Shown: positions 4,443-63,504, counted from the stretch's first letter. The stretch is 64,000 bases of DNA from Patescibacteria group bacterium (GCA_041649155.1 JBAZNP010000001.1:3581-67580), one strand, 5' to 3'. The notes: generated by a model from the letters alone, not told the origin. Numbers and translations are program-made.

Positions 4443-5519
4443 TTATTCATTAAGCCAAAACCAGAATTGATTTTTAAGCTCCTCTTGTAATTCGTGGGTA
4501 CTGGCGTGTGATAAGGCGCCAAGATACGAATTTAATGATTGGTCAAGCACATTCCTACTAATTAACCCTGCTTTAAATTCAGCTACTCTTTTTCTTAATT
4601 TCGCGAAGATTCTTCTTTTAGTTTTGGTTCTTAAAAGCCTATGATTAGGAAAAACCACATAGCCTAGAAAGTCAATCCCTTGCCTGATTTTTCGAATTGA
4701 AACTTTGTTTGGATGAAGTTTTAATTTTAAATTTATTTCTAGAAAGAATTGGATTTCAGGGATTAAACTTTCGAGATAAGCATGATCATTTGAGACGATT
4801 ACAAAGTCATCGGTATATCTGGCATAATGTCTGATTTTTAGTTTGTGTTTAATAAACTGATCAAACTCGTTCATATAAATATTGGCAAAAAGCTGGCTAG
4901 TTAAATTTCCGATTGGCAGTCCAGCAGAATTGCTCTCTCTCTCTCTCTCGAATAGCCCCAGCTGCAGAGGAACAGTTTTGCTATAACTGCCGATAATCCC
5001 ACTGAGCAGCCTCATTGTATTTTGATCAGATATTCTTTTTTGAATTATGTTTAATAAAATTTCATGGTCAATCGAGTCAAAAAACTTTTTAATATCGCAC
5101 TTCAAAACATAACAAGGCCCTGTATTATTCTTGCTTACTTGTCGAATAAACTTTGCTAAGCAATCTACGCCCTTATGATTTCCTTTACTAATTCGGCAGG
5201 AAAATGAACTTGAGATGAAAGTCGGCTCGAATATGGGATTGAAAACTCTAAAAATAGCATGGTGGAGCACCCTATCGACAACCGTTGCTTTGTGAATTTC
5301 TCTTAGTTTCGGATCGGTGATAAAGAACGAATAGTAGACACCGTGTTTGTAAGTGTGATACTTTAGATTTCGGTGAAGCTCTAAAGTATTCTCTTCCAGA
5401 TTCCACTCAAATTCCAAAACATCCTTTTTCTTCAGCTTTCCCTTTTTAAATTCATCCCAAGCCAAAAATAGATTGTCGAGAGAAATAATTTGTTCAAAAA
5501 TATTAGTATAAAATTTCAT
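4443..5519 (-). CDS. Diversity-generating retroelement reverse transcriptase
   Basis: 358 aa with RT motifs, including the YTDDFVIV (YxDD) box and an LPIGNLTSQLFANIYMNEFD palm region. The size fits DGR RTs, and it is adjacent to Avd and TR. Confidence 0.9.
   Translation of the reverse strand: MKFYTNIFEQIISLDNLFLAWDEFKKGKLKKKDVLEFEWNLEENTLELHRNLKYHTYKHGVYYSFFITDPKLREIHKATVVDRVLHHAIFRVFNPIFEPTFISSSFSCRISKGNHKGVDCLAKFIRQVSKNNTGPCYVLKCDIKKFFDSIDHEILLNIIQKRISDQNTMRLLSGIIGSYSKTVPLQLGLFERERESNSAGLPIGNLTSQLFANIYMNEFDQFIKHKLKIRHYARYTDDFVIVSNDHAYLESLIPEIQFFLEINLKLKLHPNKVSIRKIRQGIDFLGYVVFPNHRLLRTKTKRRIFAKLRKRVAEFKAGLISRNVLDQSLNSYLGALSHASTHELQEELKNQFWFWLNE
4933..4949. repeat. (CT)8 / (GA)8 dinucleotide microsatellite inside the RT coding sequence
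   Basis: tgctctctctctctctctcg on the + strand encodes ERERES on the minus strand. Confidence 0.9.
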
Positions 5520-5527
5520 ATTCTCTC

Positions 5528-5562
5528 GTCATTCCGGACTTGATCCGGAATCTATATAAATA
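5528..5562 (+). repeat. Palindromic MITE-like element, family Q (gtcattccggacttgatccggaatctatataaata)
   Basis: Near-identical copy at 8520-8554, with a compensatory G:C versus A:T pair in the stem. It lies in the divergent RT/avd promoter region. Confidence 0.8.
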
Positions 5563-5579
5563 ATTATGAAGGACAACTC

Positions 5580-5927
5580 ATGCAAGAATTTGACATCCCG
5601 ATTTTTAAGAAAACTTATGATTTCTACAAAAATTTCCATTTACTTAGAGCTAAGATATCAAAGCAGGATCGTTACACTGTTTTTCAAAGGTGTGAAAATG
5701 TCATACTCGATTTGTTGGAAAGAATTTTAGAAGCAAGCCAATTAAGCAAGGCACAGAAACTGCCTGTGCTTGAAAAAGCCAGCTTAAAATTGAACTTTCT
5801 TAGAGTATTTTTGCGACTAATGAAAGATATAAAATCGATTGATCTAAAAATCTACGCTGGTTTTGAGCAGAATGTCGACGAAATCGGAAGAATGCTCGGC
5901 GGTTGGATTAAATCTACTAAAGAATAA
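5580..5927 (+). CDS. avd: DGR accessory variability determinant (Avd, four-helix-bundle protein)
   Basis: 115 aa. The C-terminus EIGRMLGGWIKSTKE matches the Bordetella phage bAvd C-terminus EVGRILGSWIARVNRK. LNFLRVFLRLMKDIK parallels LAMLRFWLRFLAGIQ. Confidence 0.85.
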   Translation: MQEFDIPIFKKTYDFYKNFHLLRAKISKQDRYTVFQRCENVILDLLERILEASQLSKAQKLPVLEKASLKLNFLRVFLRLMKDIKSIDLKIYAGFEQNVDEIGRMLGGWIKSTKE

Positions 5928-6033
5928 GTTCGCTTCGCTTCTTTTTACGCACTGATTTTTGACTAATATATCTTGTAATAAAAGAGGAAGCGCTCATTTT
6001 CACAAGCATTCCCTCTTCGCTCAGGAGAGACTT

Positions 6034-6166
6034 CGGGAGGAAGCCAGAGGCAGACCCATAGTTGTCGTTCGTATTGTCAACCCTGTTGGTGTCGAACTTG
6101 ACCTTGTCGTCGTTGAAGTTGAAGTACGGAGCCTTGTCGAACTCACCATCGGCCTCAGAATCTTTG
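6034..6166 (-). other. DGR template repeat (TR)
   Basis: 133 bp that align without gaps to 6609-6741. All 21 mismatches are T on the + strand here (A on the minus, coding strand) against C or A in the other copy. In frame it encodes N-rich AAC codons (NFNDDKVKFDTNRVDNTNDNY). Confidence 0.9.
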
Positions 6167-6469
6167 CTTTTGTCCATCTATATTCACTGGAAATTGAGCT
6201 TTACTTCCACTTAGCGCAGACTATATGCTCTCTTCCCTGTATTTCATTTGGCAGCAGCTCGATATGTATTCACCGAACATCCGCACCAGACAAAAACAAG
6301 CAGTATCTCCTCAACCAGGTGCACTCTTAGAAACCTTGGTCGCTAAGATTCTGACCTTTCTATTGATTTGAGATTTCGGCGGCAGCAATCCCTGCCTACC
6401 GGCAGGCAAGCGTAAACTACTACACATTAGCCTATTTTCATCGAAAGTATACACTAGCACAGCTTAATA

Positions 6470-6520
6470 TTGCAAAAAAAATGTAAAGAAAACAGGCTAT
6501 TCGTATGGTGGCGAATAGCC
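6470..6520 (-). terminator. Putative rho-independent terminator of the DGR target gene
   Basis: 9 bp stem ggctattcg/cgaatagcc with an 8 nt loop. On the minus strand it is followed by the U-rich run tgttttctttacattttttttg. Confidence 0.45.
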
Positions 6521-6532
6521 TGCGCGTAGCGA

Positions 6533-6545
6533 CCGCCTTCGGCGG
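6533..6545 (-). other. GC hairpin downstream of VR (candidate DGR homing hairpin)
   Basis: ccgcc ttc ggcgg lies 64 nt 3' of the VR/IMH end. DGRs commonly need a GC stem-loop in this position. Confidence 0.4.
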
Positions 6546-6602
6546 ACAGGATCAAGTGGCAAAGAGCCAAAAGATCCAAGGGATCTAAGAAACAAGGAAC
6601 AA

Positions 6603-7508
6603 CTACTGCGGGAGGAAGCCAGAGGCAGACCCACAGCTGCCGCTCGCAATGCCAACCCTGTCGGTGTCGAACCCGACCCTGACGCCGTCGAAGCCGAAGT
6701 ACGGAGCCTCGTCGAACCCACCAACGGCCCCAGAATCTTTGAACTCATCTCCTGCCATGTCAGCGTGGAGCTGCTCCCAGCGAATGAATCGCTCAGGGTG
6801 AGTCAGCATGATGGCGCCAAACGCGACGCTTCCGAGTCCGAACTCGTTGGTCACGAAGACCTCGCGAGCCCTTCGTACAGATCTGCCACGATGGCGCATG
6901 CCGAGCTGGGCAGCGATAATCAGAATATCGCCTTTCTGTGTCTCGGCGATCTTCTCAAGTGCTTGCGCGGTACGGGCGAGAAGCCTCAGTTGAGCCGGTG
7001 TAATCTGCCCATCACGATAGTTGTAGAACGATCGCATCTCTGCGATCTTGACATGGATGAGCTGGATTGCTCTGCAGTACTTCTCGTCCCGGTCAGTGAC
7101 CTCGGGGAAGTGCTTCAGCGCTATGGCCTCGACAGCGGGGACAGCGAACCATCCTTCTGCTCCCTTAGGGAGCTCGGGCAGGTTCTTCGCGTTCAGGAAC
7201 GCCTCAGTCGGGTCAAGTTCGAAGATCTTGGCGATTGCCGCGATCTGTTCCTCAATTGGCTTCGGTCCCTTATACTCCGGCGGGTAGACGTAGCTGGACG
7301 CCACTTCCTCGTTGGCGAACTGGTTAGTGGCAGAATGCTTCTCGATGGCTTTTCTTATGTCATCTTGAAGTGCGCCACCATTCTCGTTAAGACGCTGTGC
7401 TCGATCCTCGTCGAGCTGAGCCTGGTTGTAGACAGCCTCAAAGAGGCCAGTTGCGTGGAGACCTTTCGGGTCTCTGGACGTGATCAATGCTTTCTGCATC
7501 GTCATCAT
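6603..7508 (-). CDS. DGR variable target protein, with VR at the C-terminus; the ORF is open back to 7565 but an RBS supports a start at 7508
   Basis: ggagga RBS followed by ATGATGACGATG at 7508. The C-terminus is ...FDEAPYFGFDGVRVGFDTDRVGIASGSCGSASGFLPQ. The gene is conspicuously GC-rich compared with its neighbours. Confidence 0.8.
   Translation of the reverse strand: MMTMQKALITSRDPKGLHATGLFEAVYNQAQLDEDRAQRLNENGGALQDDIRKAIEKHSATNQFANEEVASSYVYPPEYKGPKPIEEQIAAIAKIFELDPTEAFLNAKNLPELPKGAEGWFAVPAVEAIALKHFPEVTDRDEKYCRAIQLIHVKIAEMRSFYNYRDGQITPAQLRLLARTAQALEKIAETQKGDILIIAAQLGMRHRGRSVRRAREVFVTNEFGLGSVAFGAIMLTHPERFIRWEQLHADMAGDEFKDSGAVGGFDEAPYFGFDGVRVGFDTDRVGIASGSCGSASGFLPQ
6609..6741 (-). other. 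DGR variable repeat (VR), including the IMH at its 3' end
   Basis: Counterpart of the TR. The 25 bp stretch cgggaggaagccagaggcagaccca (6609-6633) is identical in TR and contains no A on the coding strand, which is IMH-like. Confidence 0.9.
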
Positions 7509-7534
7509 CCTCCTTGTGTATAGGATTTGCCGTT

Positions 7535-7595
7535 CCTTGTGTGGAACAAGCACTCTATTGACCATATTTTGATCAACAAGGTGCTTGTTCCAAGG
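7535..7595. promoter_or_regulatory. Inverted repeat (ggaacaagcac ... gtgcttgttcc) in the promoter region of the DGR target gene; candidate operator
   Basis: 11 bp perfect arms (7543-7553 and 7581-7591) with ccttg/caagg extensions and a 27 nt spacer, 35-87 nt upstream of the start at 7508. Confidence 0.4.
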
Positions 7596-7723
7596 TAATT
7601 TTAAAGTTCAATTTACGTTTAATATTATATCATAAAGTGAAAAATAAATCAAGTGGTTGACCAAAGTAACGTTTTGTGATATTTTAATAAGCGTAAAAAT
7701 AAAAAGTTTTCAAGGAGTTAAGA

Positions 7724-8247
7724 TTAGTAAAAACGATAGATTTCTTCGAGCAAACGAGCAAATCAGGTTCTCGCCTCTCATGATTATTGATGAAAATGGT
7801 GAGAAAATGGGAGAAATGTCTCGATTAGATGCCTTAGCCAAAGCCCGCGAAATGGGCCTTGATTTAGTTGAAATAAATCCGACTGCCCGTCCCCCAATTT
7901 GCAAAATCATGGATTTTGGCAGATTTAAATATGATCAGTCTAAAAAGCTGAAGGAAAGTCGAGCAAAGCAAAAAGAAGTTGAGCTCAAAGAAATCAGACT
8001 TACTTTCAAAATCGGTGATCACGACATAGAATATAAGGCAAAAAACGCTAGCGATTTTTTCACACAAGGCAATAAAGTCAAGGTATCAATGAGACTAAGA
8101 GGACGCGAAAATGCTTTTGTGGAAAATGCAATGGAAGTATTTAGAAAATTTGCAGACAAAGCAGGGCTGGATTACGAACACAGGCCGATTAAATCAGGTA
8201 ATCAAATAACAGCAATGCTAGCAGAAAAGAAAAAAGAGAGAGAATAA
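7724..8247 (+). CDS. infC: Translation initiation factor IF-3; probable AUU start at 7724 (ORF open from 7657)
   Basis: RFSPLMIIDENGEKMGEMSRLDALAKAREMGLDLVEI..., the IF-3 N- and C-domains. An aaggagt RBS precedes ATT at 7724. It heads an infC-rpmI-rplT operon. Confidence 0.85.
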
Positions 8248-8519: not shown

Positions 8520-8586
8520 GTCATTCCAGACTTGATCTGGAATCTATATAAATAGTAGCTGGATCCCGTATCAAGTACGGGATGAC
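8520..8586 (+). repeat. Composite palindromic MITE-like element (modules Q and P, gtcat...atgac termini) in the rpmI-rplT intergenic spacer
   Basis: gtcattccagacttgatctggaatctatataaatagtagctggatcccgtatcaagtacgggatgac holds two hairpins whose loops, cttga and tcaag, are reverse complements. Confidence 0.8.
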
Positions 8587-9057: not shown

Positions 9058-9128
9058 GTCATCCCCGCGAAGACGGAGATCCACAAAAGAAAATACTATC
9101 AGTAGATTCCCGCCTTCGCGGGAATGAC
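9058..9128. repeat. MITE-like element, family D (gtcatccccgcgaag...cttcgcgggaatgac), with terminal inverted repeats
   Basis: Related copies at 10676-10733 and 39063-39170 share the agacgg(a/g)gatccac and agtagattccc segments. Confidence 0.75.
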
Positions 9129-9137
9129 AGTGATTGA

Positions 9138-10675: not shown

Positions 10676-10733
10676 GTCATCTCCGTGTAGACGGGGATCC
10701 ACTAATAGTAGATTCCCTTCTTCAAGGGAATGA
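10676..10733. repeat. MITE-like element, family D copy
   Basis: gtcatctccgtgtagacggggatccactaatagtagattcccttcttcaagggaatgac. Confidence 0.75.
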
Positions 10734-10866
10734 CAGTGGATGACTTGCAATTTGTAATTATCATCAGAGAGAATCGTTAATCTATCCCTAAATATTATAG
10801 CCTGTTATTGACCAATGTTGTCAAGGATTGCTAAAATATATTAAGAAGAAGTAAAAAAAGGATCAA

Positions 10867-37703: not shown

Positions 37704-37788
37704 GTCATCCCAGACTGCAATCTTGAGATCTGGGATCCAGAAATTTTTACTACGAACTTCCTAGATTCCAGATCAAGTCTGGAATGAC
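37704..37788. repeat. Composite palindromic MITE-like element (modules P and Q), intergenic copy
   Basis: gtcatcccagactgcaatcttgagatctgggatccag...attccagatcaagtctggaatgac. Inverted relative to 8520. An inverted, diverged copy is inserted in rsmH. Confidence 0.8.
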
Positions 37789-37808
37789 AATGTATTTCAG
37801 ATCATTAT

Positions 37809-39062: not shown

Positions 39063-39170
39063 GTCATTCCTGAATCAAGTTCAGGACAAGCTCTCGGGAA
39101 GGCAACGCCATGGCCCGAGGATCAAAAATATTAATATACTATTAGCAGATCCCCTTCTTTAAGGGAATAA
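39063..39170. repeat. MITE-like element (family D-related) with a gtcattcctgaatcaagttcaggac hairpin
   Basis: Shares agcagatccccttctttaagggaataac with the 9058 and 10676 copies. Confidence 0.65.
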
Positions 39171-39926: not shown

Positions 39927-40003
39927 GCGCCCATAGCTCAGCTGGTTAGAGCGTCGCATTGACATTGCGGAGGTCAGAGGTTCGAGTCCCCTTGGGCGCA
40001 CCA
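39927..40003 (+). tRNA. tRNA-Val (anticodon GAC) with encoded CCA
   Basis: Cloverleaf: acceptor gcgccca/tgggcgc, D-arm gctcagctggttagagc, anticodon stem tcgca/tgcga with loop ttGACat, T-arm agagg ttcgagt cccct, then a cca. Confidence 0.9.
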
Positions 40004-49095: not shown

Positions 49096-49802
49096 TGGTG
49101 GAGGTGGCGGGTAATGCTCCCGCGTCCAAAAGGTTAAGAACACATCGTCTACAAGTTTAGTTCCGGTTGAAAATTTAAATATTGGATAAAATCGGAACCA
49201 AAAACCAATATTCTACCTCTAGTAAATCTTAAGATAAATTGCTAGAGAATCAATAAATCAGCAACTCGAATTATGACACCCGTTAATCTTCAGTCGAGTA
49301 GCCAAAGAACGGATGGTTGTCGCAATTAAGCAGCAACTGGCGCAAAGCTAGGCATGCTGAAAGCAGCTTTTACTTTGCTAACAAATGAATTTGCATTTGT
49401 AATTTTTGAAAGTTTATAAAGTGGCTTTCACACTTACTTGCAGATATGTTTTTAAAGTCCTTCTGTCGAAGCTAATACACCCCCACAACAAGCATAATTC
49501 TATAACATTTATCTCCTCACGTCAAGATCGTCTTCGGGGACGGTTCTAAATTGAATACAGATTTAGTGATAATTTAATATTTACTAATCTTTTCTTAATA
49601 TTCCTCGCCGCATAGTGAAAATAAGAAAAAAATATAATGCAAAAAAGAGATTTAAATATCACCAAAATAATAAATAGTCACCTTATCGCCAATCATGAGA
49701 TCATTTTAGAACCGTCCCCAAGATGGTCATTCAAAATAAACGCATTGAAACTAATGCATAGCACAAATATTCATTTTTTCAATACAGAATTAACAATTTT
49801 TA

Positions 49803-62443: not shown

Positions 62444-63504
62444 TGAAACATATCCCCGTTTTAAAAAATGAAGTTTTGGAAGCGTTCAGCTATCTTAAAG
62501 ACGTCAAGAATAGCTTTTTTGTTGATGGTACGCTCGGATTAGCAGGCCACAGCTTGGCCATAGCCGAACAATTTAAAATTCAAAAAATAAAATTTAAAAT
62601 TATGGGTATCGATAAAGATAAAACTGCTTTGAGGTTAGCAAAAGAAAATATTGAAAATACAGGCTTTATAAATAATTTTTTATTTGTGCATGATGATTTT
62701 AAAAATATCGAAGAAATTTTAAAAAACTTGCGTCATTCCAGACCTGATCTGGAATCCAGAAATACCACAGGCAAACCAACTTCCTGGATCCCGGATCTCA
62801 AGCTTACAGTCCGTGATGATGAGTCTGATAATGGTAGCTTGATGATCAACGGAGCGCTAATTGATCTTGGTGTCTCATCGATGCAATTAGACGACAAAAA
62901 AAGAGGGTTTTCTTTTTCCGATCCAGAGGCAGCTTTGGACATGAGAATGGATCAAACTCAGGAGTTAAGTGCTTTTGATGTTTTAAATTACTATCCGCAA
63001 CTAAAACTGGAAAAAATATTCAAAGAATATGGAGAAGAAAAATTTTATAAAAATATCGCAAAAAATATTTGTAAAGACAGAAAGATCAAACCAATTGAAA
63101 AGGTCGGTGAACTCTTGGACATCTTAGAAATATCGATCCCAACCAAAATAAGAAAAACCAGTAAAAAACATTTTGCAACCGGAACTTTCAGAGCATTGCG
63201 GCTTGAGGTCAATCAGGAATTAACAAAACTTGATACGACACTTATGAATTTTATAAATGCTCTCAAAAAAGGTTCAAGGTTAGCTGTTATATCTTTTCAC
63301 TCAACTGAAGATAGAATCGTAAAGGAAACCTTTAGAAAAGCTGAAAATCCATGTGTCTGTCCTCCCTTAGCTCCAGTTTGCACATGTGAAAATGTTTCTG
63401 CCGTCAAGATAATAACCAAAAAGCCGATTATTCCGTCAGATCAGGAAATAGCAGAAAATCCTCGTTCTAGAAGCGCTAAATTAAGAATAATTGAAAAACT
63501 ATAA
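62444..63504 (+). CDS. rsmH: 16S rRNA (cytosine1402-N4)-methyltransferase RsmH (ORF open from 62368)
   Basis: MKHIPVLKNEVLEAF, DGTLGLAGHS, DLGVSSMQLDD and a C-terminal RsmH domain. It contains a ~30 aa in-frame palindromic-element insertion. Confidence 0.85.
62732..62820 (+). repeat. In-frame composite palindromic element (modules Q and P) inside rsmH
   Basis: gtcattccagacctgatctggaatccag...ggatcccggatctcaagcttacagtccgtgatgat is the inverted homolog of 37704-37788. It encodes HSRPDLESRNTTGKPTSWIPDLKLTVRDD. Confidence 0.75.

Follow-up and report, generated by a model that had tools for sequence, protein, structure and literature searches.

A chromosomal diversity-generating retroelement in a Patescibacteria bacterium with a (GA)n tract that may phase-vary its reverse transcriptase

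The DNA considered here is a 64,000-nucleotide stretch from a Patescibacteria group bacterium (GCA_041649155.1 JBAZNP010000001.1:3581-67580), which we call the window throughout, and its positions 4443-7652 hold what is almost certainly a complete, functional-type chromosomal diversity-generating retroelement (DGR) of a kind restricted to the Candidate Phyla Radiation (CPR, or Patescibacteria). To our knowledge, DGRs are the only natural targeted protein hypermutation system in prokaryotes; they are strikingly enriched in CPR bacteria, and the control of their firing is poorly known. A preliminary description of the window had proposed a complete element with a reverse transcriptase (RT) gene, an Avd gene, a template repeat (TR) and a variable repeat (VR) at the 3′ end of a target gene, and all of these parts were confirmed; every sequence-level feature of a DGR that we checked was found. 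As a DGR the element appears to be another member of an already known CPR-restricted kind, and the new part seems to be a switch in the RT gene: judging from related loci, a (GA)n microsatellite there probably turns the enzyme ON and OFF by slipped-strand phase variation. Taken as a whole, a DGR plus a repeat-switched RT is an explanation that we consider likely to be correct. The further proposal, that the (GA)n tract, or the G10 tract that stands in its place in one relative, is a selected contingency switch gating hypermutation, with the DGR OFF in most cells of many CPR bacteria and ON by chance in a few as two-tier bet-hedging, is one we lean towards with reservation.

The TR (6030-6166) and the VR (6605-6741), both on the minus strand, form a gapless direct repeat of 137 nt with 85% identity, the VR making up the last 45 codons of the target gene. 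Read on the minus (coding) strand, all 21 mismatches fall on TR adenines; 21 of the 38 adenines are altered and none of the 99 other TR positions differs in the VR, a distribution with a hypergeometric p of ~1e-14 (21 mismatches all on 38 A positions of 137). The changes comprise 17 A>G, 3 A>T and 1 A>C. Every one lies at codon position 1 or 2 and is non-synonymous (21/21), and 37 of the 38 TR adenines sit at these two positions, with one at the third. The preliminary description had aligned two regions of 133 bp without gaps; the alignment is indeed gapless, but the true repeat is the longer one given above, and although all the mismatches are at TR adenines as it had said, 20 of them lie within the 133-bp coordinates and the 21st, the A>C, falls just outside (TR 6033, VR 6608). 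Its account of changes to G or T missed this A>C, and its placing of the mismatches mostly in AAC (Asn) codons was overstated, since Asn codons account for 7 of the 21 and the rest are GAC, AAG, GAG, GAT, ACG and TAT. When the alignment is tabulated by TR base, as it had advised, mismatches occur only at A and are not spread over the other bases, and the 25-nt A-free, GC-rich identical end that it had likened to an initiation of mutagenic homology (IMH) sequence is present at 6609-6633 in the VR and 6034-6058 in the TR.

The A>C difference looks like a fixed TR/VR difference of the IMH*/IMH type and not a mutagenesis event, because the same contrast is found in most related loci: nearly all read ...CCGAAGT in the TR against ...CCGCAGT in the VR, and in most of the 26 related loci the TR ends in ...CCGAAGTCTC and the VR in ...CCGCAGTA(G/A). 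Across 27 loci, A>G typically makes up 50-80% of TR-to-VR changes, an excess that would come either from biased misincorporation by this RT clade or from selection for Gly, Asp, Ser and Arg codons. An open reading frame (ORF) of 86 aa over the TR (5917-6177) is the TR read in the VR frame; it has no family match and was not taken as a gene. No additional VR or trans target was found in the 64-kb window.

The RT gene (4443-5519, minus strand) encodes 358 aa and is intact, or ON, in the window. The YxDD box proposed for a protein of this length is there as YTDD, together with LPIGNLTSQ, which contains the IGNLTSQ motif, and the translation matches Pfam RVT_1 (6e-22). Among PDB chains it comes closest to 8ub7_A, a 328-aa RT (entries 8ub7-8ube) that aligns over the full length (E 2.6e-46), and the best match among group II intron RTs reaches E 1.2e-23. 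The PDB label of the 328-aa protein is just 'Reverse transcriptase'; from its length and sequence we take it to be bRT of the Bordetella phage. The Avd gene (5580-5927) encodes 115 aa on the plus strand, opposite to the RT, TR and target, an orientation that had not been mentioned earlier. The predicted Avd homolog was recovered near the RT by two hidden Markov models, NCBIfam DivGenRetAVD (81.4 bits against a cut-off of 80) and Pfam bAvd (1.6e-16).

The same cassette recurs elsewhere. About 30 of 80 genome loci with a target homologue share its order of target, ~600 nt, inverted avd and RT, and in 26 related loci TR and VR differ at 12-25 adenines and at 0-2 non-A positions. The VRs of close relatives differ almost solely at TR-adenine positions; in L203, the closest relative with the same infC-flanked context (90% nucleotide identity overall), the VR differs from that of the window at 22/38 TR-A positions and 3/100 others. 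This evidence of variation comes from consensus assemblies. A search of JGI metagenome contigs for the exact 25-nt IMH pattern gave no matches. The earlier reading of the locus as a protein hypervariation system is thus supported by the adenine-only TR/VR pair, the RT, the Avd and the presence of the cassette in 26 other genomes. An alternative would be a segmental duplication of the 3′ end of a gene, followed by a general A-to-G bias, beside an unrelated RT of the group II intron or defence kind. This would suit the fact that A>G makes up 17 of the 21 changes, and also the top NCBIfam match of the RT, a group II intron maturase, though at 149 bits this lies under its cut-off of 300. However, such a bias would not leave 0/99 non-A positions changed, nor confine the changes to one strand and to codon positions 1 and 2, nor produce the same RT-Avd-TR-VR arrangement and pattern in 26 other genomes; moreover, the RT is far closer to the 8ub7 RT than to group II RTs and the Avd scores above its family cut-off. 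The adenine-only pattern, the RT match and the recurrence in other genomes effectively refute duplication plus bias, and we give it virtually no credence.

Between motifs 3 and 4, the RT ORF of the window contains a (GA)8.5 microsatellite of 17 nt (4933-4949, minus strand) that encodes ERERES; no other di- to hexanucleotide repeat occurs in the 64 kb. The tract, which the preliminary description had not mentioned, sits in an insertion of ~11 aa not found in the 8ub7 RT, upstream of RT motifs 4-7, which in the window are in frame. Among the genome loci, 13 RTs carry a tract at exactly the same site, (GA)6.5 to (GA)17.5 in 12 of them and G10 in the locus L034. In 12 of these 13 the tract divides the RT into two frames, the window alone being in frame, whereas the tract-less RTs are single intact ORFs in 13 of 13 cases (Fisher p = 2.7e-6). 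A metagenome scan for (GA)n with at least six units followed by the PIGNLT coding motif gave at least 120 contigs, at least 108 of them encoding this RT. Among the matches listed, the de-duplicated (GA)n RTs from genomes and metagenomes (n = 81) comprise 16 ON, 38 OFF+1 and 27 OFF+2 alleles, which leaves 65 of the 81 distinct tract-bearing RTs out of frame at the tract while the tract-less ones are ON in 12 of 12; tract lengths in this set run from 13 to 51 nt ((GA)6-25).

The split RT genes are not pseudogenes, as judged by three properties: their halves contain no other stops, dN/dS is 0.03-0.18 in both halves with OFF/OFF pairs included, which indicates purifying selection, and the VRs of OFF loci diverge cleanly at adenines, with 0-1 non-A changes. 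Nearly identical contigs differ in the state of the tract. L075 (OFF, 18 nt) and L129 (ON, 20 nt) are identical over 6348 nt save for one GA unit. L083 and L119 (both OFF, 18 nt) have one shared VR, and L108 (ON, 20 nt) equals them over ~2.9 kb save for the GA unit, 19 VR differences (18 of the 19 at TR-adenine positions) and one difference 24 nt beyond the VR. Where contig pairs or groups have identical 300-nt flanks and both tracts are complete, tract length differs in 4 of 5, two of these being pairs other than the ones just named.

These data also bear on the possibility that the tract is a tolerated low-complexity insertion and that the frame breaks are assembly or sequencing errors or mark RT pseudogenes. 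Short-read assemblies are error-prone at repeats, the window RT is simply intact, and ~50 of the 80 target homologues lack an RT in the surrounding 6 kb, as might be seen if cassettes were lost or decayed. Yet the breaks are found only at the tract (12/13 tract-bearing RTs against 0/13 tract-less), the length differences are whole repeat units, a different slippery sequence, G10, stands at the same site in L034, and many studies contribute to the more than 100 independent contigs with the tract. Together with the lack of other stops, the low dN/dS in both halves and the adenine-only VR divergence of the OFF loci, this makes a tolerated insertion a very unlikely explanation. The G10 homopolymer (L034:8370-8379) replaces (GA)n and leaves that RT out of frame, which suggests that a slippery tract was acquired independently at the same RT loop. 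In the RT of another relative (L017, ~7900-8050), the same loop holds a GTCATTCC...GGAATC hairpin-repeat insertion, and the loop seems to tolerate insertions.

Several points weigh against a phase-variable DGR as set out above. No PDB sequence match was found for the Avd. Two independent assemblies of the window strain, ERZ27247363 and SRR8542065, agree in their VR and in a tract length of 17 nt, and ON/OFF polymorphism is seen in relatives only, such that DNA-level switching in the window lineage itself is something we infer from those relatives. In favour of a switch, ON alleles among the matches listed fall under the one-third expectation (16/88 before de-duplication, p = 0.0012), but this and the other ON/OFF counts come from phylogenetically related loci in consensus assemblies, and binomial tests on them overstate independence. 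Our literature search found no paper that connects DGRs with phase variation, slipped-strand mispairing, repeat tracts or frame-shifted RTs, and no published description of the tract; it went without what is reportedly the main CPR DGR survey (Paul et al. 2017, Nat Microbiol), so an earlier description is possible. Lastly, a GC hairpin, often with a UUCG-type loop, follows the tract at a distance of a few nucleotides in ~30-50% of loci.

Such a hairpin would favour the main rival, in which the DGR is an ordinary one and an out-of-frame RT is made by programmed recoding, either a +/-2-nt ribosomal shift or RNA polymerase slippage, with the tract setting a low level of RT expression and not a heritable switch. 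Recoding would also account for the finding that most alleles are out of frame and yet have RT halves under purifying selection and freshly diversified VRs, tRNA re-pairing on a GA repeat is perfect after a +/-2-nt shift, and OFF+1 is somewhat commoner than OFF+2 (43 vs 29 among the matches listed, p = 0.12). Programmed frameshifts, however, normally keep one fixed frame relation, and here all three occur. The presence or stability of the hairpin is not associated with frame state (p = 0.2), and there is no strong hairpin after the window's own tract. Contigs that otherwise match exactly have tracts differing by whole GA units, and thus the DNA itself varies. Recoding and DNA-level switching are not mutually exclusive and can coexist, but because of the three frame relations, the polymorphic DNA tract and a hairpin that does not track frame, we regard DNA-level variation as at least the primary process and recoding as an improbable explanation, though the strongest competitor.

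If the tract does switch the RT, a slippery repeat would be a simple, heritable and reversible form of RT control, and the resulting two-tier bet-hedging would be of a kind not described in DGRs. The broken look of many CPR DGR RTs in assemblies would be accounted for as well; pipelines that demand an intact RT ORF would under-count such DGRs or call them degenerate. The target family, with its >1,400 unannotated and apparently intracellular homologues and a new variant of the lectin fold, is in any case a large and clearly delimited candidate for learning what CPR DGRs are for.

The sequence of events that we propose builds on what can be read from the sequences directly, namely the components, the adenine-only pattern, the fold of the target, the tract polymorphism with ON and OFF alleles in relatives and the purifying selection on both RT halves. 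A minus-strand transcript with the TR (6030-6166) and a structured 3′ spacer would be bound by RT and Avd, and the TR RNA would be reverse-transcribed with misincorporation opposite template adenines. The cDNA would then replace the VR (6605-6741), directed by the 25-nt A-free end, the fixed TR-A/VR-C difference and probably the structured region downstream of the VR. As a result, ~20 first- and second-position adenines would be recoded in the last 45 codons of the target gene, which form part of a predicted C-type-lectin-fold binding domain. Gain or loss of a GA unit by slipped-strand mispairing would put motifs 4-7, including YTDD, out of frame, and the mutator would be switched stochastically and reversibly, appearing OFF in most cells or lineages, with a minority ON. 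Within this scheme, the transcript boundaries, the roles of the hairpins described below and the biological role of the target are what we infer from the DNA.

A spacer (Sp-like) RNA region lies 3′ of the TR (5928-6029, minus strand) and starts with the conserved AAGTCTCTCC; RNA folding gives it a 16-bp stem-loop with a GAAA tetraloop at ~5982-6019, and an equivalent stem-loop follows the TR in most of the 24 related loci listed. Tetraloop-capped stem-loops that bind Avd have been described (bioRxiv 10.1101/2023.10.23.563531), and the stem-loop in the window spacer is comparable to them. A promoter-like site, TTGCAA-18-TATACT (6446-6475, minus strand), is a consensus match only and could drive the TR RNA, and a hairpin with a T run that resembles an intrinsic terminator follows the target gene on the same strand (6492-6523).

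Just 3′ of the VR there is a structured region (6533-6577, minus strand) made up of a stem-loop with CTTG/CTTTTG at 6549-6577 and a GC hairpin, CCGCCGAAGGCGG, at 6533-6545, the latter being the hairpin that had been noted 64 nt downstream. In the window and 24 other loci, the CTTG and CTTTTG motifs lie ~10 nt apart in nested stems right after the VR stop codon, and CTTG/CTTTTG-rich stem-loops after the VR are conserved in 25 loci. A hand-specified structure for this region has 65.6% of cells paired, compared with 57% in shuffles and 35-47% in slid controls, and its covariation score is 0.347 vs 0.23, which is modest support; RNAalifold returned no consensus structure on the alignment of the post-VR region. 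We consider the region a candidate target-recognition element; for the Bordetella phage DGR a single hairpin has been described, and the element here is larger. Upstream of the target gene, a promoter-like site, TTGATT-17-TATAAT with a TG (7624-7652, minus strand), is followed in the 5′ leader by a 23-nt inverted repeat (7542-7564 / 7570-7592, minus strand) that is 83% complementary across a 5-nt loop. Lying between the promoter-like site and the start codon, this repeat could be a regulatory hairpin or an operator.

The target gene (6603-7499, minus strand) encodes 298 aa; the preliminary description had left the nature of this protein aside, as it had the GC-rich composition treated below. 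Its ORF is open to 7565, and the start is probably the ATG at 7499 because the starts of homologues and an AGGAGG upstream agree on it. Profile searches of the target against Pfam, NCBIfam and PDB gave no match. A first structural model from a shallow alignment of 31 sequences had a predicted local distance difference test (pLDDT) score of 50 and was discarded; the AlphaFold2 model from an 80-sequence alignment reached a pLDDT of 96.4. In this confident model the C-terminal domain is a divergent C-type-lectin fold that carries the VR, and the variable residues are accordingly predicted to lie on a C-type-lectin-fold domain. The N-terminal helical domain has no detectable relatives, and Foldseek found nothing significant for the model among PDB and viral structures. 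Roux et al. 2021 (PMC8144416) expected a C-type-lectin fold for unannotated CPR targets. Inspection of the target showed neither a signal peptide nor a membrane helix, and the protein is apparently cytoplasmic or intracellular, in line with the published view that the targets of CPR DGRs may lack a membrane attachment.

The target family is large and unannotated, with 1,437 homologues at E<=1e-3 in a clustered protein collection and 1,502 clusters at the 50% level in an exhaustive search. Homologues share ~65-70% identity in their first 250 residues, the last ~40 being hypervariable, and all of those with named hosts are from Patescibacteria (Paceibacteria, Vogelbacteria, Uhrbacteria, Berkelbacteria and similar). 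Some JGI records (P0018, P0046 and P0070) label target homologues 'ribosomal protein S16'. This is probably an annotation error, as an S16 gene lies ~6 kb off in the locus L001 and no S16 domain was detected in the family. In L001 and ~50 of the loci L002-L081, target homologues occur without RT, Avd or TR within 6-8 kb and still have a hypervariable C-terminus and a GC-rich composition; these copies may be relics, or a DGR elsewhere in the genome may act on them in trans.

The composition of the target sets it apart from its surroundings. Its GC content is 0.57 and its GC at third codon positions (GC3) 0.67, where the median GC3 of 35 long open frames in the window is 0.31, and the window RT and Avd have GC contents of 0.35 and 0.34. 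In 79 of 80 loci the target is richer in GC than its flanks (medians 0.60 vs 0.42), and this extends to 'orphan' copies that lack an RT or TR within 8 kb, while the RT and Avd of the same cassettes are slightly under their flanks. Since GC3 is affected, amino-acid composition is not the cause of this GC island. Possible sources include frequent transfer, GC-biased gene conversion and selection acting on the nucleic acid itself; more speculatively, the target may be under an unusual recombination or gene-conversion regime that does not extend to the RT or Avd.

Compared with the prototype, the mtd-avd-TR-brt element of Bordetella phage BPP-1, the window DGR shares an RT of the same clade (8ub7_A presumably being bRT) with an Avd partner, a TR of ~135 nt, adenine-only mutagenesis and a VR at the C-terminus of a C-type-lectin-fold protein. 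Also in common are an IMH-like end that is GC-rich and free of A, a hairpin that follows the VR and, 3′ of the TR, a structured spacer containing a tetraloop stem-loop. Unlike the phage-borne element, it is chromosomal, its avd is inverted and placed between TR and RT, and ~436 nt of non-coding DNA separate VR and TR. Furthermore, its target is not a tail fibre and has no secretion signal, and its RT has an extra loop that encodes the (GA)n tract. The targets TvpA of Treponema denticola and LdtA of Legionella are lipoproteins or surface proteins, whereas the window target has no signal peptide or lipobox, possesses an unrelated helical N-terminal domain and shows no detectable sequence similarity to either.

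The window DGR also resembles other CPR DGRs, described as 'DGR clade 2' by Roux et al. 2021 (PMC8144416) and as the 'CPR set' by Wu et al. 2018 (PMC5758913). Host group and cellular location agree, as do a target without recognisable domains or membrane anchors, a VR outside the classical sequence classes and ribosomal-protein genes adjoining the cassette; from its host and these features, the window RT would belong to clade 2 or the CPR set. Neither study mentions frame-shifted RTs, RT repeat tracts or GC-rich targets, and Wu et al. 2018 mention frameshifts for TR/VR indels only. For the tract itself, the nearest parallels are simple sequence repeat contingency loci of Neisseria, Haemophilus, Campylobacter and Helicobacter, including the phase-variable mod genes ('phasevarions'), in which intragenic repeat number likewise sets the frame, ON and OFF alleles are found among near-identical strains and the gene is otherwise under purifying selection. 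The window RT differs from them in that the switched gene is a targeted mutator, one stochastic system gating another, the host is an uncultured CPR bacterium and the repeat is a dinucleotide, (GA)n, that encodes poly-Glu-Arg in every frame.

The cassette is flanked on one side by infC, rpmI and rplT and on the other by genes for a C39-like peptidase, a bactofilin and uvrA, with a transfer-messenger RNA (tmRNA) gene further along; because its neighbours are housekeeping genes we consider the element chromosomal. Within the cassette, avd lies between TR and RT on the opposite strand and converges on the spacer, and a divergent intergenic region of 60 nt separates it from the RT. The window has an exact match in the ENA assembly ERZ27247363 (k141_656675, 603 kb). 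Rfam gave no matches within the DGR locus, its only matches in the 64-kb window being the tmRNA gene (49096-49484, minus strand) and a single tRNA gene (39927-40000, plus strand).

A family of short, intergenic hairpin repeats, GTCATTCC-N-GGAATC, which are REP-like (resembling repetitive extragenic palindromes), is dispersed through the window, with copies at 5528-5552, 8520-8544, 9102-9129, 10700-10735, 37755-37790, 39063-39090 and 62732-62756. The 8-mer or its complement has nine matches in the window, seven of which are GTCATTCC...GGAATC hairpins. The first copy, GTCATTCCGGACTTGATCCGGAATC at 5528-5552, is a member of repeat family D3 to which no strand is assigned and lies in the 60-nt intergenic region between RT and avd, where the independent assembly SRR8542065 breaks. 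A further copy of the hairpin repeat is found between rpmI and rplT.

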